64,000 nucleotides of DNA from Syntrophaceae bacterium UBA6087 (GTDB taxonomy: Bacteria; Desulfobacterota; Desulfomonilia; UBA1062). Each line of letters starts with the position of its first letter. Positions within the stretch are counted from its first letter, which is position 1. The stretch spans positions 137,136-201,135 of the forward strand of contig DIXF01000001.1 of assembly GCA_002448235.1 (NCBI GenBank), in the 5' to 3' direction. Positions 17,595 to 60,775 of this stretch are shown piece by piece. The position numbers and the translations under genes were made by a program. Under the pieces are notes generated by a model. The model worked only from the letters and a program-made list of their open reading frames with translations, ran no database searches and had not been told where the DNA came from.

Positions 17595-18800
17595 CTAAAA
17601 TTTAAGCCCGATCCATCTGGTTTCTTCGCCCTTCATGCCGTCCGGTGAGCATGATGACTTGAAGGCCTCGTAAAGATGATGCGTGGCGATCTCTCTTCCG
17701 CCGAGTCCGAGTATGTAGTTCACGATGGACGGACGGGCGCTGCTGTCTTGCGTGTGGCGGTACAGCGCCGACTTGATATCCGAGGTCAGTGCGCCCTGGT
17801 ACCCGTAGCTCAACGCCTTTTCGAATATGATGACGCCCCTGCAGGAGCTCAGAGCCTGTGCGATGATCTCCGCCGGGAAGGGCCGGTAGAGGTGCACGCT
17901 CATGACGCCGGCCTTTATCCCCTCGCCCCTGAGCATGTCCACCACATCGCGCAGGTGATAGGAGAGCGAGCCCAGGCTCACTGCGACATATTCGGCGTCT
18001 TCGCAGAGATACGGTTCGATGAAGGGAGCGCCGCCCCGTCCGAACACGGACGCGAACCGCTCGTCGATTTTTTTCAGCGCGGGTATGGCATCGAGCATGC
18101 TCTTGTGGAGCAGGTACCTGATCTCCATGTATCCGTGCGCCATATCTCCCCGGATATCCGGCCGGACATCGGGCAGGGTTACGGTGTTGAGGTTTGCAGG
18201 CCTCTTCGGATCGAGGCTGTAGGCCGGGTTGTAGGGAGGGAGGAACCTGTCCGTGAGCGAAGAGTCGGGTACATCGAAGGGCATGTACGTATGGGAGAGG
18301 AGGTATCCGTCATAGCAGACCATCACCGGAACCATGACCTCTTCGGCCAGCAGGAACGCCTTGAGCACGGTATCGATGATCTGCTGGTGGTCGTTCGCAT
18401 AAAGCTGAATCCACCCCGTGTCGCGCTGGGAGATGGAGTCCTGGTGGTCGTTCCAGACCGTCCAGGGGGCTCCGACGCCCCTGTTGACCACGCACATGAC
18501 AAGGGGGAGCCTGGCGCCGGCAGCCCAGTGGATCTGCTCGTGCATGTAGAGCAGCCCGTTGGCGGACGTTGCGGTAAAGGCCCTGGCGCCTGTGGAAGCG
18601 GCTGCTATGCATACGGCCAGCGCGCTGTGCTCGCTCTCAACAGGAATGTACTCCGCATCCATTTCTCCCGACTCGATATACTCCGAGAGCTTTTCCGTGA
18701 GCGGCGTCTGGGGCGTTATGGGGTATGCTGCAATGACTCTGGCCCTGGCAAGCTTTACCCCCAGCGCTGCGGCCACATTTCCGGATTCGATCACTTGCAT
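17595..18800 (-). CDS. 2-oxoacid:ferredoxin oxidoreductase, alpha subunit.
   Basis: 401-aa translation beginning MQVIESGNVAAALGVKLARARVIAAYPITPQT..., typical of PorA/VorA. Its stop overlaps the delta subunit gene. Confidence 0.85.
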   Translation of the reverse strand: MQVIESGNVAAALGVKLARARVIAAYPITPQTPLTEKLSEYIESGEMDAEYIPVESEHSALAVCIAAASTGARAFTATSANGLLYMHEQIHWAAGARLPLVMCVVNRGVGAPWTVWNDHQDSISQRDTGWIQLYANDHQQIIDTVLKAFLLAEEVMVPVMVCYDGYLLSHTYMPFDVPDSSLTDRFLPPYNPAYSLDPKRPANLNTVTLPDVRPDIRGDMAHGYMEIRYLLHKSMLDAIPALKKIDERFASVFGRGGAPFIEPYLCEDAEYVAVSLGSLSYHLRDVVDMLRGEGIKAGVMSVHLYRPFPAEIIAQALSSCRGVIIFEKALSYGYQGALTSDIKSALYRHTQDSSARPSIVNYILGLGGREIATHHLYEAFKSSCSPDGMKGEETRWIGLKF

Positions 18801-19114
18801 GGGTCTTCTTCAGCTCCTTCGAGGAAACTCGATTCATCCACCATGGTGATTGCCTTGGTGGGACATTCCTGGGCGCATATCCCGCAGCCCTTGCAGTATT
18901 CATAATCGATTTTCGGCGGAATCCCCCGGGTGATCACCCCGTCCGGGCAGTAGAGCCAGCAGATGTAGCAGGCCGGGGCGTTCCTCTTTCCGGGCGTGCA
19001 GATCTGCGGGTCGAGAACGGGCCGTGCGATCCTCCACGATCCGGTCTTTCCGGCGTCGCCCGGTCCGGCCTCGCTGAAGGAGATGTCTTTGCAGTAGTTT
19101 TTTTTGTCTTTCAA
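18791..19114 (-). CDS. 2-oxoacid:ferredoxin oxidoreductase, delta subunit (2x[4Fe-4S] ferredoxin).
   Basis: Two Cys clusters, CYICWLYCPDG and CKGCGICAQECP. Length is 107 aa. Confidence 0.8.
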   Translation of the reverse strand: MKDKKNYCKDISFSEAGPGDAGKTGSWRIARPVLDPQICTPGKRNAPACYICWLYCPDGVITRGIPPKIDYEYCKGCGICAQECPTKAITMVDESSFLEGAEEDPCK

Positions 19115-19677: not shown

Positions 19678-19910
19678 AGCTCACCTACCCGTGATTATCG
19701 GCAGCATACAGGAGGGACTCCCGCAGCATTCGAATCCGGCCGCGTAAAACTATACACTAGTTGCGGTATTTAATCAACGGAGGCGAATCAGGGCAGGGCA
19801 GTACCGGGTAGAACTCTTTGAGGAAGCGCCCGGCCCTGCCAAGGCACGCACCTTGCATAATTATCAGGCATGTTTACAGGGAAGAGGTTTTCACCAGAGG
19901 AGGAGATATC

Positions 19911-20891
19911 ATGATCAGCAGGGAAGCCAGAAGGGTCCGAAGCAAAGAAGGTTTTATCCCGGACGACCTGTCGCAGAACAGGTCGCTGGCGCTTTTCACC
20001 GAGAGCATCGTCTCTCTGCTGTCGAGTCCTTCCCTGAGCAGCGCCATGATCGATCTCGTATCCCTGATGGGGCAGACATTCCCACTGGCCGCGCCCGCGC
20101 TCTACATCAGCATGAATGGGTCCCAGGCACAGGCATATTCCGTGCTCGACCGAAACGGGGTCGGGCCGGGCGATGCCGGGAGGGTATTGGGGCACAACCG
20201 CTTCAACTATATCCCGGTCCCGGTGGGAGGCCATCCTCCGCTCATACAGCGCCGGGTCGATATGCTGCTCGTTGATACTCCTGTCACCAAGGTTGTCCTG
20301 TCGATAAACTCAGGAATCCATGACGGAATATTCCGCGAATGGGTCAAAATCTTGACGCCGGCCGTTTCCAAGCTCATGGACAATGAGGTGCTCCTCAAGA
20401 TGGCCTACCGGGACGGGCTTACGGGCCTGCTCAACTTTCGTGCATTCGAGGAGATGCTCTATGCGGAAGAGGATAGGGCGCGAAGATACCGGACGGCATT
20501 CTCCGTTATGATGGTAGATGTCGACTGGTTCAAGAAAATCAACGACAGCTACGGCCACCAGATAGGCGACGTGGTGCTGAAGTCGCTTTCAGACAGGCTT
20601 ATCCACTGCGTCCGGAAGAGCGACAGCGTATTCAGGTACGGAGGGGAGGAGTTTGCCGTTATACTTCCCCACACAGGCCTTCTCAAAGCCGTTAAGCTGG
20701 CAGAAAGGATCCGGTACATGGTCGAGAAGACGGATTTCATCGCCGGTCTGCATATCACCGTGAGCATCGGGATCAGCGAATATGAAGAGGGTCTGGAGAC
20801 CTGCGACCTGGTCAAGCAGGCCGACAAGGGCCTTTATCTGGCGAAGGAACGCGGGCGGAACCGTGTTGAGATGATGAAAGGCGTTTCATGA
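19911..20891 (+). CDS. Diguanylate cyclase (GGDEF domain) with an N-terminal sensory, GAF-like region.
   Basis: The ATG at 19911 follows the RBS GAGGAGGAG; the listed ORF starts upstream at a TTG. The GGDEF core reads RYGGEEFAVILP, with LTGLLNFRAFEE and DVDWFKKINDSYGHQIGD. Confidence 0.85.
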   Translation: MISREARRVRSKEGFIPDDLSQNRSLALFTESIVSLLSSPSLSSAMIDLVSLMGQTFPLAAPALYISMNGSQAQAYSVLDRNGVGPGDAGRVLGHNRFNYIPVPVGGHPPLIQRRVDMLLVDTPVTKVVLSINSGIHDGIFREWVKILTPAVSKLMDNEVLLKMAYRDGLTGLLNFRAFEEMLYAEEDRARRYRTAFSVMMVDVDWFKKINDSYGHQIGDVVLKSLSDRLIHCVRKSDSVFRYGGEEFAVILPHTGLLKAVKLAERIRYMVEKTDFIAGLHITVSIGISEYEEGLETCDLVKQADKGLYLAKERGRNRVEMMKGVS

Positions 20892-28401: not shown

Positions 28402-30150
28402 GTGCCGATAGTGATAGATGGTATGCTATCAATTGAAGACGATTACGAACGCAGGTACAACGAAGAGACCGGGGATCTCTTATATCAGCGCGTGCTGGCT
28501 GTACTCCTGGTGGGCATTATCCTCATCCCGTTCTTCAGCGTCCTGGATTATGTGGTGGTCCGTGAGCACTTCGGCCTCTTCTTTTTCTACCGCATTACCT
28601 GTTCCGGATCGCTCCTGGCGCTTCTGCTTGTTTACTATTCAAGGTACGGCAAAGACTCTGCGTTTGCCCTGGTGACCGTCGCCTATATCATTGCGGCCTT
28701 CACCATCGCCATGATGTGCGTGAAAATGGGCGGGTACTCGTCATTTTACTACGTCGGACTCATCATGGTCCTCGTCACGATCGTCATCCTGCCCTTAAAC
28801 GCTCCGCAGGCATTCCTTTCCGGGCTCATGCTCTACCTGATCTATGCCCTGCCCATCATCTTGCTCAACAACCCCAGTCCGGACAGCCTGAAAGTATTTT
28901 TCAGCAACAGTTTCTTTTTTGCCTTTTTCATCGTGATAACCACGCTTCAGGCATATGAAGAGACAAAGATGCGCAAGAGGGAATGCAGGCTCAAAACAGA
29001 GATGGACGGTCTTGCAGAGCGTCTCTCCTATTACGCACACAACCTCGAGGCAGAGGTGGAGAAGCGCCTTATCGAGCTTGAGGAATCCGAGCTCCGCTAC
29101 CGGGAGCTCTATGAGAATATCATCGATATCGTCATCCTCGTGGACCGGAACTCAAAGATACTCATGGCGAATCCCAGGTTTTATGACACGATCGGCATTC
29201 CATCGGAGCAGAAGCTCGATTTCAGCTTTATGAAGCTCGTGAAGGGGCCGGATACCCTCCTCGTGGAGAGGATGTTCGACCGTCTGCCCACCGAGCAGAC
29301 GGTAAAGGATTTCCAGTTCAGGGTCGAAAACCGCCAGGGAAAGATCTTTGAGGTCGAATGCAATGCCAAGTGCATCTACAAAGAGGGCGAACTCGTCGGC
29401 TTCCAGATGGTAATAAGGGATATCACCGTACGCAAGAAGCTGGAAAACGACCTGCTGGAATCTTATAAAAAGGTCCAGAGCGCACGGAACGCGACGATCC
29501 TCGGCTTAGCGAAGCTGGCTGAATACCGTGACGCGGATACGGGCGCCCATCTGGAGCGCATACGGGAATACTCGAGGGTCATCGCCCAGGACCTGGCCAA
29601 GAGAGCGAAATTCGCCGAGTACATCACCCAGGATTATATTGATGATATCTACAATTCGTCCATTCTCCACGATATCGGAAAGGTGGGCATCCCGGACTCG
29701 ATCCTGCTGAAGCCGAGCCGTCTGACCAAGGACGAGTTCGAGGTGGTCAAGCGCCACTCATCCCTGGGCGGAGACGCCCTCAGGGCCGTGGAAACGAAGA
29801 TCGAAGGCCAGTCCTTCCTGAGCCTGGGAAAAGAGATCGCCTATTACCACCACGAGAAATGGGACGGCACCGGATATCCCAAAGGGCTCAAGGGTGAGCA
29901 GATCCCCTTGTCTGCAAGGATAGTCGCCCTTGCGGACGTCTATGATGCCCTTACCTCAAAGCGGGTCTACAAGGAGGCCTTTTCTCATGAAAAGGCCCTG
30001 GAGATCATTCTGGAGGACAGGGGCAAGCATTTCGATCCGGAAATCGTGGACGCATTCATGGACCACGAGGCGGACTTCCGCAGCATCCGGGAGGAAATGT
30101 TCAGAGACCACGCCGCAAATCAGCAGAAGCAGGCAACCACACCGTCATAA
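28402..30150 (+). CDS. Membrane-anchored PAS/HD-GYP c-di-GMP phosphodiesterase.
   Basis: About six N-terminal transmembrane segments, a coiled coil, and a PAS region. The HD-GYP signatures are ILHDIGKVGIPD and HHEKWDGTGYP. Confidence 0.85.
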   Translation: MPIVIDGMLSIEDDYERRYNEETGDLLYQRVLAVLLVGIILIPFFSVLDYVVVREHFGLFFFYRITCSGSLLALLLVYYSRYGKDSAFALVTVAYIIAAFTIAMMCVKMGGYSSFYYVGLIMVLVTIVILPLNAPQAFLSGLMLYLIYALPIILLNNPSPDSLKVFFSNSFFFAFFIVITTLQAYEETKMRKRECRLKTEMDGLAERLSYYAHNLEAEVEKRLIELEESELRYRELYENIIDIVILVDRNSKILMANPRFYDTIGIPSEQKLDFSFMKLVKGPDTLLVERMFDRLPTEQTVKDFQFRVENRQGKIFEVECNAKCIYKEGELVGFQMVIRDITVRKKLENDLLESYKKVQSARNATILGLAKLAEYRDADTGAHLERIREYSRVIAQDLAKRAKFAEYITQDYIDDIYNSSILHDIGKVGIPDSILLKPSRLTKDEFEVVKRHSSLGGDALRAVETKIEGQSFLSLGKEIAYYHHEKWDGTGYPKGLKGEQIPLSARIVALADVYDALTSKRVYKEAFSHEKALEIILEDRGKHFDPEIVDAFMDHEADFRSIREEMFRDHAANQQKQATTPS

Positions 30151-47840: not shown

Positions 47841-47998
47841 GCAAAAAGAGCCGTCCCTTTTATGCAAAGGAGACGGCTCTTTGAAGTTCCTTTCAAACGA
47901 CTCGTGAATGCACCTTCTGTCTCCCTTCGCCGGCATTATCCGGATCAGGTTCGATGGGTATGATCTCAGGCTCTTCAAAATGAACCACCCCATATAAA
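47841..47998 (-). ncRNA. TPP (THI-box) riboswitch with an intrinsic-terminator expression platform, in the leader of thiE-thiC.
   Basis: The minus strand reads GGGGUGGUUC...GCCUGAGAUCAUACCCAUCGAACCUGAUCCGGAUAAUGCCGGCGAAGGGAGA, matching the THI-box consensus (CUGAGA, UACCC, ACCUGAUCYGGAUAAUGCCRGCG.AGGGA). A terminator hairpin AGAGCCGUCUCC...GGGACGGCUCU plus a U-run follows. Confidence 0.85.
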
Positions 47999-48165
47999 AG
48001 AGCCCTGTTTTTATATACCAGCACCCGGGGGCAGTCAAGGAACAATCAGGTTATCCGTCAGCTGCCGAAGAGCGGTACAAAAAAAAGAATTATGGTTAAA
48101 AAGGGACCAGACGTCTGCGGTAAAATTTTGACACCGCCGCAGCCATGCGGTATAAGGCGCGCATA

Positions 48166-51111: not shown

Positions 51112-53868
51112 TCAGTTCTCCAGCGCCCGCCTGATCACTTCCTTGAGCTCTCTGGTGCCGGCCGGCTTCATGAGCAGCTCCCGGATGCCCAGGCTCTTGA
51201 TCTCGCACTCGTCGATGGTATCGCTGAATCCGGTACACAGTATGACGGGGATGTTCGGGCGGATGTCCGTAATCCTCGAAGAAAGCTCCAGGCCGTTCAT
51301 CTGCGGCATAGTGAGGTCGGTAATGACCAGATCGAAGGCGTGAGACGATTGCGCGAACAGCTGAAGGGCTTCTACGCTGCTCTTTATGGGATGAACGTCA
51401 TAGCCGAGCTTGTCCAGCGCCTTGCTCACGCTGGAGAGGATGATATCTTCATCGTCGATGAGCAGGATCTTCCCCTTTCCACTGCCCGGCAACGCCGCTT
51501 TTCCGTCCGCTGCCCGGTCATGCGCCCGCTCATTCGTCAGAGGGAGGTATGCGATGAACCGGGACCCTTTCCCGGATGTGCTCTCAACAGTGATGGTGCC
51601 GCCGTGGTCCTTGAGGATGCCGTGGACGACGGCAAGCCCCATGCCGCTGCCTTTGCCCACATCCTTGGTGGTAAAGAACGGTTCGAAGATATGCGGGAGT
51701 ATCTCAGGATCCATGCCGCAGCCTGAATCTTCAACCGAAAGCTGGAGATAGTTGCCCGGTTTAATGTCCAGGCCGTGATCCGCCGAGTCCAGAAGGGTAT
51801 TGAGAAGGCTCACTTCTATGACGCCTTTCTTCGAATCGATCGAATCAGCGGCATTTTTACACAGGTTCATAATGATCTGCTGGATCTGTGTCGGATCTGC
51901 CAGGATCGAGTCGTCTGTCGCGTTGAAGTTGTGGCGGATCTCTATGATGCTCGGGAGCGACGACCGCAGGAGGACGAGCGTTTCCTCTATCAGCGGGGTG
52001 ACCTCTGTCGGTGAGAACTGTTTTTCCTTACGCCTGCTGAACGAGAGGATCTGCTTGATCAGATCTCTCTGCCGGTACGCTGCCTGGAGCATCTGCTCCA
52101 GCGTCTTATGCAGAGGGGTGTCCTGCCCCGTTTCCTCCATGAGCATCTCGGTGTTGATAATGATCGGGTAGAGGATATTGTTCAGGTCGTGGGCTATGCC
52201 GCCTGCAAACCTGCCCAGAGCCTCCATTTTCTGGGCTTGTATGAGCTGGTTTTCGAGATCTTTCTTCTCTTTCTCCGCACGCCTGCGCTCGGCGACTTCA
52301 TCCTCGAGCTGCTTGTTTCTCGTTTCCAGCTCGATCGTCCGTTCTTTTACCAGCTCTTCCAGATGGTCACGATGCCTGCGCAGCTCTTCCTCGGCTTTTT
52401 TCCGTCCGGTGATGTCCACGAACGACCCTACGCAGCCGCGGACCTGTCCCTCCGCATCCAGGAGAGGGCTGGCATTGCCCAGGATCGTGATCGTTTTTCC
52501 GCTCGGCAGCAGGACATCCATCTCGGAGTCCAGGATGTCCTTGCACTTGGCTGCGGCCTCCTGCATCGGGAGCTTTTCGGGGCGCAGTTCGATGCCTCCC
52601 CGGAAAAAGCGCCTGGTCGTGTCGTGAACGTCCGGATCAGGTCCGGCAGAGACGTTTTCGTTTTCATAGGACTCATAGAAACGATTCGCTGCAGTATTGC
52701 CGGTAATGGTGTGGCAGTGCGGATCGCGGGACACCCAGATTGCCGTGGGGGCGAGGTTCATGAGCTTTTCCACTTCCTCGGCGCGCTGACGGGCTGTCTC
52801 TTCGCTCTCCCGCAATGCCCGCTGCATCCGGATGGTCTGGAGTGCGTTGCCGCATTGGGCGGCCACCCACTCGGCCAGACGGAAGTGGTGATCGCTCCAT
52901 TCCTGCGTGTGCCTGCAGTAGATCGTTATGGCACCAATAGATTTGCTTTCGCTATGCATCGGGGAACAAAGGACAGACCGGAACGCATCCGCTTCCGGGA
53001 CTTTCAGAGTCCACAGGTCGGGCCTGAGCGAAGTGTCGTGCAGGCATGCAGTGCGGTTTTCGCGGATCGTGAGATCCATGAAGGAGCTCTCCAGCGGCCA
53101 TGGTCCGGAAATCTGGGTATCCAGGCCTGTTTGCGCCAGGGCCGACAGCAGGCCGGCCTGAATTTCATAAATCACGACTGCCGATGCTGCATCGCCGAAT
53201 AATCTTGTGGCATCGATGCAGAGGTCTGTTATCACTGTCTGCTCGGAGCTGACGAGACGAGACGAATCCAGCAGTTTCTGCAGCATCTCTTCACGCCCGC
53301 TCAGCTCGACATTCAGCGTCTGGATATCTTCCGACTGAACCTGAAGCTCTTCGGACTGCGCCTGAAGCTCCTCATTCTGCTGGGAGAGCTCTTCTGACTG
53401 CTGGGCCAGCTCCTCGTTCTGCATCGAGAGCTCTTCCGTCTGCTGGGCGAGCTCGTCGTTCTGCTGGCGGACTTGCGCATTGATCTGCGCCAGGTCGTCA
53501 AAGGCTTTTTCCAGGCGGGCCAGCAGGAGAATGATCAGGTGAACTGCTGCAACACCGACAGAAATATTGATCAGGGTGGGCAGAAGAAGATGCAGGGTCG
53601 GGTCTTGCGGAGCCGACCCTGAAGGCAGTAACAACTCGAACTTCACGACGGCCATGAAGGCAAATATTCCTGCCATTATCCACAGCAGCCTCTTCCTCCG
53701 CGTCCAGATGCAGATCAGCAGAGGCAGGGTATAGGTGAGGGGGAACGCGGCGTCACTGAAAATGAACATCCGGATGATCCCCCAGAGAACTACGGTACCC
53801 ATGGCAACAGCCCAGGCAACAAAAGTCGAGGGTTTCCGCCGTAAGAAAACAGGGAGTTCGTTCATCAT
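51112..53868 (-). CDS. Hybrid sensor histidine kinase. It has a 4-TM membrane module, then a Q/E-rich heptad coiled coil, then GAF, PAS, HisKA, HATPase_c and a C-terminal receiver.
   Basis: The coiled coil reads QQNDELAQQTEELSMQNEELAQQSEELSQQNEELQAQSEELQVQSEDIQ. The H-box reads LGRFAGGIAHDLNNIL. HATPase motifs are DSGCGM and GSGMGLAV. The receiver reads ILLIDDEDI...LVITDLTMPQMNGLEL. The start at MMNELP overlaps the cheR stop as ATGA. Confidence 0.85.
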   Translation of the reverse strand: MMNELPVFLRRKPSTFVAWAVAMGTVVLWGIIRMFIFSDAAFPLTYTLPLLICIWTRRKRLLWIMAGIFAFMAVVKFELLLPSGSAPQDPTLHLLLPTLINISVGVAAVHLIILLLARLEKAFDDLAQINAQVRQQNDELAQQTEELSMQNEELAQQSEELSQQNEELQAQSEELQVQSEDIQTLNVELSGREEMLQKLLDSSRLVSSEQTVITDLCIDATRLFGDAASAVVIYEIQAGLLSALAQTGLDTQISGPWPLESSFMDLTIRENRTACLHDTSLRPDLWTLKVPEADAFRSVLCSPMHSESKSIGAITIYCRHTQEWSDHHFRLAEWVAAQCGNALQTIRMQRALRESEETARQRAEEVEKLMNLAPTAIWVSRDPHCHTITGNTAANRFYESYENENVSAGPDPDVHDTTRRFFRGGIELRPEKLPMQEAAAKCKDILDSEMDVLLPSGKTITILGNASPLLDAEGQVRGCVGSFVDITGRKKAEEELRRHRDHLEELVKERTIELETRNKQLEDEVAERRRAEKEKKDLENQLIQAQKMEALGRFAGGIAHDLNNILYPIIINTEMLMEETGQDTPLHKTLEQMLQAAYRQRDLIKQILSFSRRKEKQFSPTEVTPLIEETLVLLRSSLPSIIEIRHNFNATDDSILADPTQIQQIIMNLCKNAADSIDSKKGVIEVSLLNTLLDSADHGLDIKPGNYLQLSVEDSGCGMDPEILPHIFEPFFTTKDVGKGSGMGLAVVHGILKDHGGTITVESTSGKGSRFIAYLPLTNERAHDRAADGKAALPGSGKGKILLIDDEDIILSSVSKALDKLGYDVHPIKSSVEALQLFAQSSHAFDLVITDLTMPQMNGLELSSRITDIRPNIPVILCTGFSDTIDECEIKSLGIRELLMKPAGTRELKEVIRRALEN

Positions 53869-54767
53869 CGGTACTTCTCCTTGGTGTGGTACAGGCATCT
53901 GCTCATGCCTGTGCAATAAACATCGGCCGGCGGCCGTTCGGCCTTTCCGGACACAAGAATTCCTCCCGGCGCAAGGATCGGAGCCAGATCACGCCATACC
54001 GAGGCAGCGGCAGTCGGGTTGAGATAAATGGCGGCATTCCGCCACAGAATGATATCCCATGGGCCTTGCTCCGGGCCGTTCAGCACATCGGCAACCTTCC
54101 AGACAGTCTTGGCGCGAAGGGCCCGGACGGGCCTGAACATCCCTGCCTGAGCAGTGAAGTACGCACGCCGGAGTGCGGGGGGGAGAAGAGAAAGCTCCTC
54201 TGTATCGTAGAGCCCTTCCCGGGCCTGCTCGATTGCATCCTCACGGCAGTCCGTACCGAGGAGGAAGCTTTCCTCCAGCAGGCCGGCCTCGGAGAGAAGG
54301 ATCGCCATGCTGTACAGCTCGGCGCCGGATGAGCAGGCAACGCTCCATACCCGCAGGCCTTTTCTCCGGACAGCAAGCTCGGGCAGGACATGCGTTCGGA
54401 TTGATTCAAAAACGAACGGGTCGCGGAAGAACTCGGTAACACCGATCAGAAGCGCGCTGACCGCAGTCGCGAGCAGATGGGGCTGGTGCTCGATGAGTAT
54501 TCGTGCAGCAAGGGGCGAGGGGGCTTTCAATGCCCGCAGGCATGCAGGAATCCTCCGGTGCAGGGGCTGTACCCGATAGGACCGGGAGTTCAGTCCCGCC
54601 CTGCAGAGAACCCATGCAACGAACTCGTCCATGGGCGTCTCTTGATGCTTTGTTATAGACCCGCTGGAAGCCTTTTTCTGAGATCCGGCCGTCAGGCTCC
54701 GGCGAGGGAGCATACCCGGCTTGCCTTCAAAGGATATGTGGCGCAGGTCGGCCGTACGACTGTTCAT
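53865..54767 (-). CDS. cheR: CheR-type protein-glutamate O-methyltransferase.
   Basis: TEFFRDPFVFESI is the CheR signature. The SAM-binding motif reads LRVWSVACSSGAELYSMAILL, and RNAAIYL is also present. The N-terminal start is uncertain. Confidence 0.8.
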   Translation of the reverse strand: MNSRTADLRHISFEGKPGMLPRRSLTAGSQKKASSGSITKHQETPMDEFVAWVLCRAGLNSRSYRVQPLHRRIPACLRALKAPSPLAARILIEHQPHLLATAVSALLIGVTEFFRDPFVFESIRTHVLPELAVRRKGLRVWSVACSSGAELYSMAILLSEAGLLEESFLLGTDCREDAIEQAREGLYDTEELSLLPPALRRAYFTAQAGMFRPVRALRAKTVWKVADVLNGPEQGPWDIILWRNAAIYLNPTAAASVWRDLAPILAPGGILVSGKAERPPADVYCTGMSRCLYHTKEKYR

Positions 54768-56117: not shown

Positions 56118-57578
56118 TCAAGGTTTTCCTGACGGCTTGGTGATGTTGAGGAAAAGATTGACGCCTTCAGCTTCCTTCTCGACAACGACTGTCACATCCT
56201 CGGGCAGACCCGAGGCAAGGCTCTTGAGTTCTTCTTCGCTCCTGTGAATCAGGAACCATTCCGAACCGTATTCCATCTTGAATCTCTGTGGGTTGTAGAC
56301 CCCGAAATTTCCGATGATCAGTTTCCCGCCTGGTTTCAGGTGACGGTACAGTTCGAGGATGAGCCGGCTGACGGCGTTGGGGGACAGGTAGTCGCACAGG
56401 CCTGCGGTATAAATGAGATCGGCATGGGAATAACGTGCCTTTTCCTTGTTCCTCCCCAGGATGAGGTGTTTGATATTATCCTCGGCGAAGTCCATATGGA
56501 CACCGGAGAGCGTTTTAGCTATGGGAACGAGTCTCTGTTTTGCGTTTTCAAGCGCATGCGTATCCTGATCCATGGCAAGGAGCTCCAGTTTCACCGGCTT
56601 GGGCTCATCGCTGATCGCGGTGAGAAAGTCATGAATCTCGACGCAGGGGCCGCAGGCGACGCTGACGATCTTGCAGGTGCTGCCTTCGGGGAGTGAATCG
56701 TACAGAGAGGTTATCTTTCTGCACAGATATTCGCGCCGGTTCCTGACGGCCTTTGCAGCTGACCCTTCGCAGTCTACCTTGTTCATGACCTGGGAGAAGA
56801 TATCCTCTCCTTCGAAGCCGTTCCGGTATGTGATGTTCATCATTTCATAATCTCCGGCGTACCCCAGCGGTTTTGTGTATGCCCTGCGGAATAACGCCGA
56901 GGCCGTGAAGAATTCGTTGAGCATCTTCTGGAAGTATTCCCGGTGTATGAAATGCTGCTTGGAATCCGTAAATTTCCCGACTATTTTTGTAAACTGGTCG
57001 CAGTATTTCAACGTTACGTCGTTGATGACGGTAAAGGTCAGAGAGCGCAGCGCTTCATAGAGCTCTTTTTTAACGAGCTCTTCCTCCCTGCTGACTTTCT
57101 CCTCCTCTTCCTTTAGCCTGTTTCTGAAGTTCGTGAGGAGGTAGTGGAGGTGGGAGGTAAGGTGAACGAATTCTTCATCGAGATTATCTTCCACAGCCAG
57201 AGACTGGATAAAGTCGAGGTAGTCGTGTCTGAGGCGTGTGAGCTTGTCGCCCTTAATGATCGTGGAGATGTCCATGACATTCTCCAGGCGGCAGCCGATC
57301 CGGGAGATAACCTTGCCGTCCTGGTAGTCATCCTGGATATGGACGATCGTAGCCGTATCGGAGTGCACTTCCTTGTTGTGCGAGATAAAGCAGAGCCCGG
57401 AGATCATGTCGCCGATGCGGAAGACAAGGCTGCCATCCTGCAGGAGGAAAGACAGGCCTGTCCGTGAGAAGTCCCTGACTTCACAGGTGCGCTCGATCCC
57501 CTGAAAATCGTTGAACCTGACCGTTTTGCCCGATTCGCCTGGCTCAGTCAGATAACGCGGATCTCTTCTCAGCCTCAA
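56118..57578 (-). CDS. Fusion of an N-terminal PilZ domain with a C-terminal class I SAM-dependent methyltransferase.
   Basis: PilZ motifs RRDPRY (RxxxR) and RDFSRTGLSF (DxSxxG). Methyltransferase motif I reads KIVSVACGPCVE. The post-motif II/III region reads HADLIYTAGLCDYL...LKPGGKLIIGNF. Confidence 0.7.
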   Translation of the reverse strand: MRLRRDPRYLTEPGESGKTVRFNDFQGIERTCEVRDFSRTGLSFLLQDGSLVFRIGDMISGLCFISHNKEVHSDTATIVHIQDDYQDGKVISRIGCRLENVMDISTIIKGDKLTRLRHDYLDFIQSLAVEDNLDEEFVHLTSHLHYLLTNFRNRLKEEEEKVSREEELVKKELYEALRSLTFTVINDVTLKYCDQFTKIVGKFTDSKQHFIHREYFQKMLNEFFTASALFRRAYTKPLGYAGDYEMMNITYRNGFEGEDIFSQVMNKVDCEGSAAKAVRNRREYLCRKITSLYDSLPEGSTCKIVSVACGPCVEIHDFLTAISDEPKPVKLELLAMDQDTHALENAKQRLVPIAKTLSGVHMDFAEDNIKHLILGRNKEKARYSHADLIYTAGLCDYLSPNAVSRLILELYRHLKPGGKLIIGNFGVYNPQRFKMEYGSEWFLIHRSEEELKSLASGLPEDVTVVVEKEAEGVNLFLNITKPSGKP

Positions 57579-57665
57579 CGCAATCCTCCAGAAAAGGAAA
57601 TGGTATGTACATCCGGATCGGTAAGGGCTGTTGATTTCTTTAATCTTCCGGGGGTGTCACGTCCT

Positions 57666-58154
57666 TTAGGAGGCGCAGTCGCTCATATCGCCGCCGAGCT
57701 TGGACAGGGCATGCGTCAATGCAGGCGCAACGCTCTCCAGGCACTCGGTCGCCCCTTTCGGACTGCCCGGGAGGTTGATGATCAGGGTTCTCTTCCTGAC
57801 TCCCACAACCGCCCTCGAAATCATGGCATGAGGCGTTTTCTGAAGGCTTACGCTCCGCATGACTTCTTCCATGCCGGGAACGCGCTTATCGATGACGGAC
57901 AACGTGGCCTCAGGGGTGACGTCCCTGTCGGAGAGGCCGGTGCCCCCCGTTGTAATGATAAGATCGAGACAGATCTCGTCGGTCCAGGAGACGAGCATGC
58001 TCCTGATGAGCTCGGTCTCGTCCGGGATGATCTCGTAGCGCTCGACTGAGATACCCAAACCTTTGAGAATGGCCTGGACGAGCTCGCCGCTCTTGTCTTC
58101 GCGCTGTCCTCTGGATCCTTTATCGCTTAAGGTGAGCACACCTGCTTTTTTCAT
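57666..58154 (-). CDS. moaB: Molybdenum cofactor biosynthesis protein MoaB/MogA family.
   Basis: The internal start MKKAGVLTLSDKGSRGQREDKSGE is followed by LDLIITTGGTGLSDRDVTPEA. It is ATGA-coupled to the upstream hypothetical gene. Confidence 0.8.
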   Translation of the reverse strand: MKKAGVLTLSDKGSRGQREDKSGELVQAILKGLGISVERYEIIPDETELIRSMLVSWTDEICLDLIITTGGTGLSDRDVTPEATLSVIDKRVPGMEEVMRSVSLQKTPHAMISRAVVGVRKRTLIINLPGSPKGATECLESVAPALTHALSKLGGDMSDCAS

Positions 58155-58585
58155 TTCTTCACCTGTTTGAGCCGCTGCTGGGCAAGGACAACCAATGCCC
58201 TGGGAACGCCTTTTGACTTTGCCAGGCTCGCAAGCTCCCGCTGTTTGAGAAACGCCACCTGCTTCATCGCCTCCGGCAAAGGGGTCTTGGGGTTGTTCGC
58301 CAGGGCAACCCTGATCTGGTAGTTCCTCAGCCATTCGCGGTTGACCGTAATGTGCTTGAGCACTTCCTCATTGACCTGCCTGTTGTTTGCAACCATCAGG
58401 ACCTCGCCTTCCGTGATCTTCGGCGACTGGATGACCGCAAGCTGAACGAGCTTGTTCGAATCGCGCATGAGGATGGTCCTTGCTTCTTTGCTGCCCTTAT
58501 GCGCGAGATCCATCTTCTCGGCCACGCTCATGGCCTGTATGGTCTGGAACAGATTCTTGGTGCCGTCTGTTTCGTTATTTTCCAT
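58151..58585 (-). CDS. Hypothetical protein of unknown function, possibly an alpha-helical repeat protein.
   Basis: 144-aa ORF lying between the EF-G paralog gene and moaB, overlapping both. No motif was recognised. The start codon is uncertain. Confidence 0.4.
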   Translation of the reverse strand: MENNETDGTKNLFQTIQAMSVAEKMDLAHKGSKEARTILMRDSNKLVQLAVIQSPKITEGEVLMVANNRQVNEEVLKHITVNREWLRNYQIRVALANNPKTPLPEAMKQVAFLKQRELASLAKSKGVPRALVVLAQQRLKQVKK

Positions 58586-60659
58586 CTTTCTCCGCGTTCA
58601 CCTCTGCCACGACCTTTTCCTGGATGCTGTACGGGACAGGCTCCATGTGGGAAAAGCTCATGGTGTACGTGCCTCTGCCCGAGGTCAGGGAGGTGAGGTT
58701 CGGGGCATAGGTGAGCACTTCCGCGAGCGGCACCTGGGCCTTCAGCTCCTGGTACTTTCCGCGGGCGTTCATGCCCTCTATCTTTGCCCGTCTGGTGTTG
58801 AGGTCGCCCATGATGTCACCCATGGTTTCCTCGGGGATCACGACCGTAATGTTCATGATGGGTTCCAGCAGGATGGGGCGGCATTCCTCCATGGCCTTTT
58901 TGAAAGCCAGAGATCCGGCGATCTTGAACGCCATTTCCGAGGAGTCCACTTCATGGTAGGAGCCGAAGTCCAGAGTCACCCGTATGTCCACAACCGGGTT
59001 TCCGGTCAGCGGGCCGTGCTGCATGGATTCGATCACGCCTTTTTCCACGGCGGGGATGTAGGTCTTGGGAATGACGCCGCCGACGATGGCGTTTACGAAC
59101 TCAAATCCCTTTCCCCTCTCCTGGGGCTCGACCTTTATCCAGCAGTCGCCGTACTGGCCGTGGCCGCCGGTCTGTTTCTTATGCTTGCCCTGGACCCTGC
59201 AGGTCCCGGTGATGGTCTCTTTGTACGGAACTTTCGGCGTTTTCAGCTCCACTTCGACGCCGAACCTTCTCTTCAGCCTGTCCACGGCGATCTCGATGTG
59301 GAGCTGGCCCAAGCCGGAAAGGATAAATTCGCCGGTCTGCTCGTCACGGTATACCGTGAGCACCGGGTCTTCATCCATGAGCTTATGCATGGCGGGCATG
59401 ATCTTCTCCACATCCGCCTTGGTCTTGGGGTTCACGGCCATGTTCATGATGGTTTCCGGGAACTCGGGCGAGGGCAGCACAAAGTTCACCGAGTCGCTCA
59501 GGAGGGTATCTCCGGTCTTGGTTTCTTTCAGCTTTGCGATGGCGAAGATGTCTCCGGGTCCGATTTCCTCAAGAGGCTTCTGCGCCTTGCCTTCCAGGAG
59601 CATCAACGTTCCGATCCTCTCCTTTACGCCACGTGAGGAGTTGAACACGGAAGAGTCAGGAGTCAGTTTCCCGGAATAGCAGCGGATGATGCTCAGCGTG
59701 CCCGTATAGGGATCGCTCATGGTCTTGAAAACGTATCCGCAGAACATCTGATCTTCGCTTGGCTTAAGCTCCTTCTTTTCACCCTGCTTGTTCGTCAGTT
59801 CGGGCAATTTGCCGTTCAGAGGGCTTAAGCCCGAGTTGTTGATGAAGTCCATCAGGGGCTGCACACCGATGTTCAACAGGGCCGAGCCGGCGAACACCGG
59901 GAGGAACACACCGCCTGCCAGGCCTGCAGAGAGGGCCGAGGCGAGCTCTTCCGTGGTCAGTTCGCTGCCTTCGAGGTATTTTTCCATCAGGGCATCGTCT
60001 ACCTCTGCGAGGTCTTCCACCACCCTTCCGTATACTTCTTCGGCCTTGTCCTTCAGGTCGGCCGGGATATCCGTCTCGCTGAACTTGCCCGAGCCGTCTT
60101 TTTCAAAGATGAGCGCCTTTTTTCTCAGCACGTCGATCACGCCTTTGAAGTTATCTTCCGCGCCGATGGGCATCGTCAGGATCAGGGGCTTTATTTCGAA
60201 TACTTCCTGGATATCGGCTAGGACCTGATCGAAATCGGCACGCTCGCGGTCGATCTTGTTGATGAAACAGAAAGCCGCGAGGCCTTCTTTTTTCACGAGA
60301 TTCCACAGGTTCTCGGAGTGCGGTTTGATGGAGTCTATGGCATCGATGACAAAGAGCGCGTTGTCGGATGATTTCAGTCCGAGGATAGACTCCGAAGAAA
60401 AGTTCGAATCGCCGGGGGTGTCGAGAATGGTCACTCCGATGTTCTTCCATTTATAATTATGAAGTGCGCTGAAAATGGATGACTGCCGTTTCTGCTCTTC
60501 GGGTTCGAAATCCAGTATGGAGTTGCCTTCCAGTACCTTACCCAGACGTGTAGTCGCCTTCGCATTAAACAGGAGAGCTTCACCCAAAGAAGTCTTGCCC
60601 GATCCCGAATGAGATAGAATGACTACATCCCTTACATTTTCAGTCCGATATCTCCTCAT
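58575..60659 (-). CDS. Elongation factor G-family translational GTPase, a divergent paralog of EF-G2 type.
   Basis: Five-domain EF-G architecture with domain IV/V patterns (HEVDSSEMAFKIAGSLAFKKAMEE). The G1 motif is atypical, ILSHSGSGKTSL, where AHxDAGKTT would be expected. The internal start MRRYRT is preferred. Confidence 0.85.
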   Translation of the reverse strand: MRRYRTENVRDVVILSHSGSGKTSLGEALLFNAKATTRLGKVLEGNSILDFEPEEQKRQSSIFSALHNYKWKNIGVTILDTPGDSNFSSESILGLKSSDNALFVIDAIDSIKPHSENLWNLVKKEGLAAFCFINKIDRERADFDQVLADIQEVFEIKPLILTMPIGAEDNFKGVIDVLRKKALIFEKDGSGKFSETDIPADLKDKAEEVYGRVVEDLAEVDDALMEKYLEGSELTTEELASALSAGLAGGVFLPVFAGSALLNIGVQPLMDFINNSGLSPLNGKLPELTNKQGEKKELKPSEDQMFCGYVFKTMSDPYTGTLSIIRCYSGKLTPDSSVFNSSRGVKERIGTLMLLEGKAQKPLEEIGPGDIFAIAKLKETKTGDTLLSDSVNFVLPSPEFPETIMNMAVNPKTKADVEKIMPAMHKLMDEDPVLTVYRDEQTGEFILSGLGQLHIEIAVDRLKRRFGVEVELKTPKVPYKETITGTCRVQGKHKKQTGGHGQYGDCWIKVEPQERGKGFEFVNAIVGGVIPKTYIPAVEKGVIESMQHGPLTGNPVVDIRVTLDFGSYHEVDSSEMAFKIAGSLAFKKAMEECRPILLEPIMNITVVIPEETMGDIMGDLNTRRAKIEGMNARGKYQELKAQVPLAEVLTYAPNLTSLTSGRGTYTMSFSHMEPVPYSIQEKVVAEVNAEKDGK

Positions 60660-60775
60660 CTGTTCTCCCTTCCATGACCAATATAGAGCATAGGCTATTA
60701 TCCGAAAACATGTAGGCAAGTCAAGCCGGACGAGGGGATTGCTTTGGATTGCGGGCTTGATATATGATAAACGCC

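Follow-up and report, generated by a model that had tools for sequence, protein, structure and literature searches.

A PilZ domain fused to a PhcB-type SAM-dependent methyltransferase in Syntrophaceae bacterium UBA6087, a candidate for direct control by c-di-GMP

The window, which is the whole 64,000-nt stretch of contig DIXF01000001.1 analysed here, carries on its minus strand a complete ORF of 486 aa plus stop, located exactly where an earlier note on this DNA had placed a fusion of PilZ and methyltransferase domains. Translation was assigned to a TTG at 57578, the first start codon past the in-frame stop, and this start position is common to the ORF and its relatives. No NCBIfam model matched the 486-aa protein. 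The features of the locus are as follows.

56118..57578, minus strand: complete ORF, 486 aa plus stop, encoding a PilZ domain, a helical cap and a class I SAM methyltransferase (PhcB family by homology)
57585..57589, minus strand: GGAGG ribosome-binding site, 6 nt 5′ of the TTG, seen in the sequence
57270..57578, minus strand: PilZ domain core, residues 1-103, an Arg-rich N-terminal tail and beta-barrel (strands 18-98), from Pfam, models and Foldseek
57555..57569, minus strand: RxxxR motif R4-R5-D6-P7-R8, with L3 before it, from alignment with R-K-E-P-R of VCA0042/PlzD
57456..57473, minus strand: [D/N]hSxxG motif D36-F37-S38-R39-T40-G41, from alignment with D-L-S-R-S-G of PlzD
56694..57269, minus strand: extended PilZ C-terminal helix (104-132) leading into an all-helical cap (135-295), from model secondary structure
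56835..56873, minus strand: family signature K236-P-L-G-Y-A-G-D-Y-E-M-M-N248, K236 to D243 invariant
56121..56693, minus strand: Rossmann-fold class I SAM methyltransferase domain, residues 296-486, from Pfam and Foldseek
56637..56663, minus strand: SAM-binding motif I, S306-V-A-C309-G310-P311-C-V-E314, with invariant C309, G310, P311 and E314
56568-56570, minus strand: D337, invariant acidic residue ending beta-2
57666..60719, minus strand: conserved same-strand upstream block of an EF-G paralogue, a 144-aa ORF and a MoaB/MogA-like gene (context only)

The two PilZ strings reported in the earlier note, RRDPRY and DFSRTG, were present as R4-R-D-P-R8-Y and D36-F-S-R-T-G41, and alignment with PlzD and relatives showed them to be intact, although that note had allowed for their being degenerate. 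In a phmmer search, RLRRDPRY...CEVRDFSRTG paired residue for residue with QLRKEPRF...CELRDLSRSG of V. cholerae VCA0042/PlzD, the c-di-GMP complex of which has been solved as 2rde. Taken by itself the motif pair counts for little, since a loose regular expression also matched 7 other six-frame ORF fragments in the window, and the PilZ case is therefore based on domain-level evidence. Pfam placed PF07238 (PilZ) at residues 28-103 with a marginal score, 22.6 bits where 22.5 is required, and found PilZ independently in 27 of 35 aligned homologues (best E 2.6e-23). Models presented barrel strands at 18-98 followed by a helix at 104-131, which is the six-stranded PilZ barrel with its C-terminal alpha-helix. 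When the AlphaFold model of residues 1-135 (pLDDT 85.8) was searched with Foldseek, the significant PDB matches were c-di-GMP-binding PilZ structures only, comprising MrkH, YcgR, MotI, PlzA, VCA0042, PP4397, a P. aeruginosa PilZ domain, Alg44 and BcsA, many of them entries deposited as c-di-GMP complexes. All of the top 12 (12/12) were PilZ proteins, with TM scores of 0.64/0.66 to the YcgR PilZ domain 5y6g.

In the alignment of relatives, G41 was invariant, D36 and S38 were conserved in at least 90%, and R5, R8, D/N36, S38 and G41 were kept across clades at about 30% identity. Position 4 of RxxxR was K in 34, R in 28 and another, non-basic residue in 14 of 76 close relatives, with R5 and R8 invariant; judged by the alignment, the invariant pair has RxxR spacing, which is not validated for c-di-GMP binding. 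L3 is similar to L135 of PlzD, at which PDB entry 3kyg carries a mutation, and this would presumably suggest a c-di-GMP monomer.

The earlier note had described the C-terminal part as a complete SAM methyltransferase of 300 aa. A Rossmann core with its SAM-binding residues is indeed present, but about 190 aa form a helical cap that was overlooked. This region, residues 104-295, had pLDDT values mostly above 90 in the full-length model and no Pfam family, and it bears KPLGYAGDYEMMN, the most conserved motif in the family; K236-D243 was invariant in the alignment of Desulfomonilia, Myxococcota, Verrucomicrobiota and the PhcB clade. The same model (pLDDT 89.1) had a Rossmann methyltransferase fold at 301-480, to which domain Pfam assigned the CheR SAM-binding domain and Methyltransf_12/25/11. 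The methyltransferase strings named in advance, VSVACGPC and GGKLIIGNF, were found from V305 and G417, and the SAM-binding residues, the loss of which had been considered, are intact (C309, G310, P311, E314, D337), with motif I and D337 aligned to motif I and the TDID motif of CheR 5ftw. Foldseek matched the catalytic half to small-molecule methyltransferases, with 3ocj on top. This "putative exported protein" of Bordetella parapertussis, from structural genomics, was the best match to cap and Rossmann fold together (E 3.3e-12, TM 0.65 on target); it has 305 aa, no PilZ-like barrel, 17% identity and a profile E of 0.099, and its function is uncharacterised.

The earlier note gave this domain no nearest family, and BLASTP and shared invariant residues point to the PhcB type. 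Residues 46-476 matched a Paraburkholderia methyltransferase with 28% identity over about 430 residues (E 3e-47). The operon of the latter has the order methyltransferase, histidine kinase, response regulator, response regulator, which parallels Ralstonia phcBSRQ, and its relatives in Cupriavidus, Paraburkholderia and Massilia (64-92% identity) carry the KEGG name PhcB, as do many close relatives of the window protein in JGI. Around 30 invariant residues are common with the PhcB clade, including R232, KPLGYAGD, R281, CGP..E, D337 and N424. By homology, then, we assign the enzyme to the PhcB family, as neither a generic nor a CheR-like methyltransferase, an assignment that rests on the orthologue-like Paraburkholderia operon and annotation names and not on the Ralstonia PhcB sequence. 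PhcB of Ralstonia did not appear in the top 80 genome loci nor, its gene being chromosomal, in the plasmid set. In Ralstonia, PhcB makes the quorum signal, a 3-hydroxy-fatty-acid methyl ester (methyl 3-hydroxymyristate or methyl 3-hydroxypalmitate), and homology to a PhcB-type methyltransferase over residues 46-476 or so therefore points to a concrete substrate class.

The family comprises at least 2,472 clusters at 50% identity in many phyla, and the signature motif K236-N248 retrieved at least 587 species genomes. Family alignment established that the PilZ/SAM-methyltransferase fusion, the conservation of which had been in question, is genuine and conserved. A PilZ-like barrel stands at the N-terminus throughout, and hhalign of PilZ-type against PhcB-type N-termini gave a probability of 79.9% (E 1.4e-5, 80 columns). 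The c-di-GMP motifs were kept in Desulfomonilia, Myxococcota and Bdellovibrionota, and 2-3 tandem PilZ copies are carried by many relatives. In the PhcB clade (120/120) and in Verrucomicrobiota members both motifs are absent and the barrel is retained; in the former it has no Pfam PilZ match and has also lost the N-terminal tail. We read the barrel, from its distribution, as an ancestral part of the PhcB family that degenerated in the PhcB clade, and not as a recent add-on. Because the PhcB clade and Verrucomicrobiota work without the motifs, the barrel also has a role independent of c-di-GMP.

In most lineages the methyltransferase gene is followed by one for a shared Phc-type sensor with multiple transmembrane segments, which is fused to a kinase or cyclase; clustering by blastp put it next in 50 of 63 loci, and tblastn in 54 of 80. 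A Phc-type sensor lay within 6 kb in 0 of 8 loci of the window's own subfamily, in comparison with 54 of 72 other loci. It also accompanies Myxococcota members that bear canonical PilZ motifs, and a FadL-type channel occurs at Verrucomicrobiota loci as well. These neighbours speak for signal synthesis as the role of the family. In the 64-kb window we found no Phc-type sensor, adenylate cyclase partner or FadL channel, only generic kinase and receiver matches. The 87-nt gap between the upstream block and the methyltransferase gene contains no terminator-like site, and a promoter and terminator scan of the upstream region returned no convincing promoter of the gene's own. At 53865-54767, 1.3 kb from the methyltransferase gene, is a CheR gene; together with a hybrid kinase gene it forms an insertion that is missing from the locus of an 85%-identical relative. 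As for a wider c-di-GMP network, the expected GGDEF protein is encoded at 19818-20891 and a PAS and HD-GYP-type (HD_5) protein at 28402-30150, but the second PilZ protein claimed for the window did not appear in a partial search by regular expression, family HMM or Pfam on 20 ORFs. Rfam gave a TPP riboswitch only, and no c-di-GMP riboswitch.

Among known systems, PhcB shares the architecture of barrel, helical cap and Rossmann methyltransferase and the family-invariant residues, including KPLGYAGD, but its clade has lost RxxxR, [D/N]xSxxG and the N-terminal tail, all three of which are retained by the window protein; the window gene, in turn, has no adjacent phcS/phcR-type sensor. Structural alignment with the canonical receptor PlzD/VCA0042 matched the fold and the motifs L-R-x-x-P-R and C-E-x-R-D-x-S-R-x-G at 23-24% identity. 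Whereas PlzD, YcgR, MrkH and MotI are two-domain adaptors with RxxxR in the inter-domain linker, the window protein has it at the extreme N-terminus (residues 4-8), and its output is a fused enzyme. BcsA and Alg44 likewise use a fused PilZ domain and c-di-GMP to control a biosynthetic activity, and the PilZ domain of Alg44 is also N-terminal; however, these are membrane exopolysaccharide synthases or co-polymerases and not a soluble-type SAM methyltransferase. In Pseudomonas aeruginosa, MapZ (PA4608) and CheR1 already couple c-di-GMP to a SAM-dependent methyltransferase through a PilZ protein with C-terminal helices as its output. The claim that such control is not a characterised output had overlooked this pair. 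As an adaptor protein of its own, MapZ works in trans on a chemoreceptor methyltransferase, whereas here PilZ stands in cis to a methyltransferase of the small-molecule type.

With both motifs and the SAM-binding residues intact, and with enzymes of c-di-GMP turnover encoded in the window, gating of the methyltransferase by c-di-GMP, as proposed earlier, remains the best hypothesis. At chances we put near even, the gene would encode a cytoplasmic, c-di-GMP-responsive PhcB-family SAM-dependent small-molecule methyltransferase, with ligand binding and substrate taken from motifs and homology. In the model, the PilZ C-terminal helix (104-132) is continuous with the cap (135-295), which is seated on the Rossmann core (296-486). 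In a PhcB-like reaction, the methyl group of SAM would be transferred to the carboxylate of a fatty-acid-type substrate, for example a 3-hydroxy fatty acid, so that a hydrophobic methyl ester is formed. c-di-GMP would be held by the D36-x-S38-x-x-G41 turn on one side and the N-terminal tail (R4/R5...R8) on the other; as the tail becomes ordered against the barrel, the long connecting helix would move and with it the cap over the active site, so that methyl-ester output could be switched, by activation or inhibition, according to the cellular c-di-GMP level. The allosteric path from PilZ tail to cap is conjecture. A diffusible, Phc-like signal as the product is less certain for the window's subfamily because no Phc-type receptor gene is nearby.

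The barrel could instead be a structural or degenerate PilZ domain that does not bind c-di-GMP, serves a PhcB-like ligand-independent role in folding, dimerisation or substrate delivery, and carries its motifs as relics, a reading that we consider unlikely. It is in line with the retention of a motif-free barrel in all 120 PhcB-clade sequences and in Verrucomicrobiota, with the variable first Arg of RxxxR in close relatives, with the marginal Pfam score, and with R22C of PhcB, a published adaptive mutation in the barrel which lowers quorum-sensing responsiveness in a protein without any c-di-GMP motif. However, the persistence of R5, R8, D/N36, S38 and G41 at about 30% identity is hard to explain without selection on a ligand site, the PlzD motifs are matched exactly by the window protein, and the repeated tandem amplification of motif-bearing copies in relatives suggests sensing. 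PilZ domains in fusion proteins are also found to retain their binding motifs (Galperin and Chou). Binding of c-di-GMP might, on the other hand, leave catalysis unaffected and act by way of the long C-terminal helix of PilZ on oligomerisation, localisation or the binding of partners, which we regard as rather improbable. MapZ, MrkH and Alg44 use this helix in such a way, it is a known interaction surface (bioRxiv 10.1101/814665), it is unusually long here (104-132), and the stable synteny with the upstream genes hints at other partners. Since the helix is covalently continuous with the protein's own cap, though, an intramolecular effect is the simplest reading, and the loci of the subfamily offer no conserved candidate partner of related function.

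A protein glutamate methyltransferase gated by c-di-GMP and acting on chemoreceptors, in effect a fused MapZ-CheR, seems very improbable. For it speak the precedent of MapZ-CheR1, the Pfam match to the CheR SAM-binding domain (PF01739, a marginal 28.5 bits against a cut-off of 27), the CheR gene 1.3 kb off and CheR 5ftw, which was the best PDB match by sequence (E 1.9e-6 with a profile). The similarity does not extend beyond the Rossmann core (residues 290-443), Pfam reports no CheR N-terminal domain, no CheR is found in the top 50 Foldseek matches, and full-length homology is to the PhcB type; on these grounds, and because the neighbouring CheR belongs to the insertion, we rejected both a CheR-like identity and a coupling to that gene.

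Returning to the c-di-GMP-responsive PhcB-type enzyme, we searched the literature on PhcB with PilZ, PilZ with SAM methyltransferases and PhcB with c-di-GMP, and the fusion was not described there, nor do two PilZ surveys analyse it. Control in cis of a small-molecule methyltransferase has not been described, while control in trans is known from MapZ-CheR1. To our knowledge, links between second messengers and cell-cell signalling have so far been mostly transcriptional or made by receptor proteins such as RpfR. If c-di-GMP gates the enzyme, PilZ would gain a new class of output, small-molecule methylation and possibly signal synthesis, and there would be a direct biochemical bridge from a second messenger to cell-cell signalling, by which an intracellular messenger sets a quorum-sensing-like output at the enzyme level. 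Modules of a PhcB-type synthase and receptor are regarded as a peculiarity of Ralstonia. Our data suggest that Phc-like modules of synthase and sensor occur in Myxococcota, Bdellovibrionota, Verrucomicrobiota, Acidobacteriota and others, some of them wired to cyclic-nucleotide cyclases. Tentatively, and as a possibility more than an expectation, we propose that a PhcB-type enzyme making a hydrophobic methyl-ester signal is under direct allosteric control by c-di-GMP, that Phc modules are an ancient cross-phylum system whose synthase was originally a PilZ protein, and that the N-terminus of Ralstonia PhcB is a degenerate PilZ domain. For PhcB itself this would provide a structural handle, in that its unannotated N-terminal region would be a degenerate PilZ barrel with R22C inside it. 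The idea that R22C hits an RxxxR motif was rejected, as the PhcB clade lacks the motif and R22 sits in one of the barrel strands, some 8 residues ahead of the DxSxxG equivalent. The Cupriavidus, Paraburkholderia and Massilia relatives have Arg at position 22, matching the published site.

The ORF of the PilZ/methyltransferase protein occupies 56118-57578 on the minus strand and encodes 486 aa, exactly as the earlier note had it. Its TTG is the earliest start possible downstream of the upstream in-frame stop, lies 6 nt 3′ of a GGAGG, and gives the same start residue as in aligned homologues. The strings quoted for the two domains (RRDPRY, DFSRTG, VSVACGPC and GGKLIIGNF) were each found in the protein. 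However, a loose pattern of RxxxR, 12-40 residues and [DN]xSxxG had 7 further matches among the six-frame ORF fragments of the window; the motif pair alone thus proves little, and domain-level tests were made. The Pfam PilZ match was marginal, with 22.6 bits at a threshold of 22.5, and 27 of 35 aligned homologues matched PilZ independently, with a best E of 2.6e-23. In a phmmer search of PDB sequences, residues 2-61 aligned with V. cholerae VCA0042/PlzD, pairing RLRRDPRY with QLRKEPRF and CEVRDFSRTG with CELRDLSRSG, so that both c-di-GMP motifs and the Leu preceding RxxxR coincided. The AlphaFold2 model of residues 1-135 (pLDDT 85.8) matched only PilZ proteins at a Foldseek E below 2e-3, namely MrkH, YcgR (TM 0.64/0.66), MotI and PlzA, followed by VCA0042, PP4397, a P. 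aeruginosa PilZ domain (4xrn), PA0012, Alg44 and BcsA, and many of the PilZ entries matched are c-di-GMP complexes. In alignments down to about 30% identity, R5, R8 and G41 were invariant, and D36 and S38 were at least 90% conserved. Among 76 close relatives, position 4, where the strict RxxxR begins, was Arg in 28, Lys in 34 and a non-basic residue in 14; although the window protein has the canonical RxxxR, the invariant pair family-wide is R5/R8. The two PilZ motifs are intact by alignment, and alignment, Pfam and fold together identify a canonical PilZ domain at the N-terminus.

In the full-length model (pLDDT 89.1, pTM 0.71), residues 1-10 form a disordered tail (pLDDT about 60), and the PilZ C-terminal helix, residues 104-132, leads directly into an all-helical cap (135-295) placed on the Rossmann methyltransferase (301-480). 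A canonical PilZ output helix is thereby shown to be covalently continuous with a PhcB-type methyltransferase cap. The cap, which no Pfam family covers, carries the motif that is conserved best in the whole protein, K236-PLGYAGDYEMMN. The best fold match was 3ocj, a Bordetella structural-genomics protein, followed by natural-product O-/C-methyltransferases, the fatty acid synthase pseudo-methyltransferase, UbiG and CmoA.

Many relatives bear the KEGG PhcB name in JGI annotation. A tblastn search of a plasmid collection found a Paraburkholderia graminis locus encoding a 468-aa methyltransferase, a HisKA/HATPase kinase and two receivers, in that order, which parallels Ralstonia phcB-S-R-Q. Window residues 46-476 were 28% identical to this methyltransferase (E 3e-47), in which KPLGYAGDYQMVN is also present. 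Its relatives of 64-92% identity, some of them named 'Regulatory protein' or with the KEGG PhcB name, come from Paraburkholderia, Cupriavidus, Massilia and Janthinobacterium, in agreement with the statement that PhcB homologues of at least 64% identity occur in Ralstonia, Cupriavidus and Paraburkholderia (PMC6989110). About 30 residues were invariant in the cross-clade alignment, including R232, K236 to D243, R281, C309-G-P..E314, D337, A392-G, D396-Y, N424, W441 and R446; the SAM-binding residues among them (C309-G-P..E314 and D337) are intact. Because of this nearly full-length homology and the shared invariants, the window protein is assigned by sequence to the PhcB family, the comparison being made via the P. 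graminis protein and not Ralstonia PhcB itself.

The next same-strand gene encoded a shared multi-transmembrane sensor (motif SPYYAGLNL) at 50 of 63 loci by clustering and 54 of 80 by tblastn. The fusion partner of the sensor was either HisKA-HATPase-REC-HisKA-HATPase, resembling PhcS joined to PhcR, or an adenylate/guanylate cyclase domain. The pairing of methyltransferase and sensor genes occurred in Myxococcota, including canonical-motif members (e.g. RMRAR...DLSLTG, L011), Bdellovibrionota, Verrucomicrobiota, Acidobacteriota, Nitrospirota and Pseudomonadota (loci L011-L082). Since the sensor gene follows the PhcB-like gene across these phyla, Phc-type synthase/receptor modules, treated in the literature as Ralstonia-specific, look much more widely distributed than that. 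At 11 loci, mostly of Verrucomicrobiota, a FadL/TodX outer-membrane channel was encoded, usually just upstream of the methyltransferase gene, which fits a fatty-acid-derived signal needing to cross the outer membrane.

Example loci of relatives (L-numbers)
L011:7323-9851, synthase-sensor
L046:7407-10079, synthase-sensor
L037:7368-8780, synthase-sensor
L074:6900-8255, synthase-sensor
L046:4497-5819, FadL/TodX-type hydrophobic-compound channel

Searches with two signature peptides matched at least 587 species-representative genomes; an exhaustive profile search gave 2,472 clusters at 50% identity (E <= 1e-30). Among the top 150 representatives, 22 had the strict motif pair, 14 KxxxR, 52 [DN]xSxxG only and 26 neither. 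Many members are 590-800 aa long with two or three PilZ copies. Tandem PilZ domains precede the cap and methyltransferase in P0091 (796 aa), P0136 (793 aa), P0191 (784 aa) and about 35 further representatives of 590-650 aa, both motifs often being retained in some copies only; in the giant P0223 (2920 aa), the C-terminal 300 residues match the methyltransferase domain.

The barrel at the N-terminus of PhcB-clade and Verrucomicrobiota proteins follows the pattern 'VVSFRNSQGxxVRGT..L.R...V.EVYNPYSI', and these N-termini had neither the two c-di-GMP motifs, the Arg-rich tail nor a Pfam PilZ match. Profile-profile comparison by hhalign aligned PilZ-type with PhcB-clade N-termini over 80 columns (79.9% probability, E 1.4e-5), with NLQRNS opposite DFSRTG, and a PilZ-like barrel is, judging from these profiles, ancestral to the whole PhcB family. 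The unannotated N-terminal region of the betaproteobacterial PhcB clade (L083:4476-5882 and P0267-P0386) is such a degenerate barrel. PhcB R22C has been published as an infection-adaptive mutation that lowered quorum-sensing responsiveness, in a region to which the authors could assign no domain. Arg was found exactly at position 22 in 60 PhcB-clade sequences, and this residue, matching the R22C site, is predicted to lie in the degenerate PilZ barrel.

BcsA and Alg44 are classic examples of PilZ-gated enzymes. In the window protein, c-di-GMP would bind between the N-terminal tail and the DxSxxG turn and reorient helix 104-132 and the cap, altering access to the substrate pocket or its geometry; by analogy with PhcB, the reaction may be carboxyl O-methylation of a fatty-acid-type substrate. 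That the barrel is instead a ligand-independent module, as in PhcB, is unlikely given the motifs described here for the window protein, and it is somewhat less likely still that c-di-GMP acts on partner binding or localisation rather than catalysis. We consider a fused MapZ-CheR-type protein methyltransferase very improbable: the similarity to CheR, the sole PDB relative by sequence, was restricted to the Rossmann core, and none of the top 50 Foldseek matches was CheR. The claim that c-di-GMP control of a methyltransferase is uncharacterised fails for control in trans, as MapZ binds CheR1 when c-di-GMP is elevated, and stands for the fusion: our literature search found no paper that describes a PilZ-SAM methyltransferase fusion, reports a PhcB-like protein as binding c-di-GMP, or assigns PhcB a PilZ-like domain. 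Automated annotation calls relatives 'PilZ domain-containing protein', 'class I SAM-dependent methyltransferase' or PhcB (KEGG), never integrating these. The PilZ-PhcB-type methyltransferase is a real, large and uncharacterised architecture uniting two known systems.

The subfamily of the window protein comprises Desulfomonilia and 'Deltaproteobacteria' MAGs (52-85% identity), and a Phc-type sensor was found at 0 of its 8 loci and nowhere in the 64-kb window. Its loci share an upstream same-strand block made up of an EF-G paralogue, a 144-aa ORF and a MoaB/MogA-like gene, and a convergent pal downstream. The 144-aa ORF is conserved there and has an overlap of a few bases with each neighbour. 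Of the c-di-GMP network proposed in the earlier note, the GGDEF diguanylate cyclase and the HD-GYP-type protein (PAS plus HD_5) were confirmed, while regular-expression and family-HMM searches and Pfam scans of 20 ORFs found no second PilZ protein. A TPP riboswitch (RF00059, 67.8 bits) was the sole Rfam match in the window, which therefore has no c-di-GMP riboswitch. Between 15600 and 19100, long ORFs overlap on opposite strands, e.g. 17595-18800 (minus) and 17676-18905 (plus, no Pfam match), making gene calls ambiguous there. Compared with the syntenic locus of an 85%-identical relative (L001), a CheR-domain ORF followed by a hybrid kinase ORF (51112-54767), the two overlapping by 52 nt, are inserted between pal and scpB.

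Features in the window
19818-20891, plus strand, GGDEF diguanylate cyclase
28402-30150, plus strand, HD-GYP-type protein
47905-48002, minus strand, TPP riboswitch
51112-53916, minus strand, GAF-PAS-HisKA-HATPase-REC hybrid kinase
53865-54767, minus strand, CheR SAM-binding domain only, 300 aa
58151-58585, minus strand, 144-aa ORF, no Pfam match, between EF-G paralogue and MoaB/MogA-like gene
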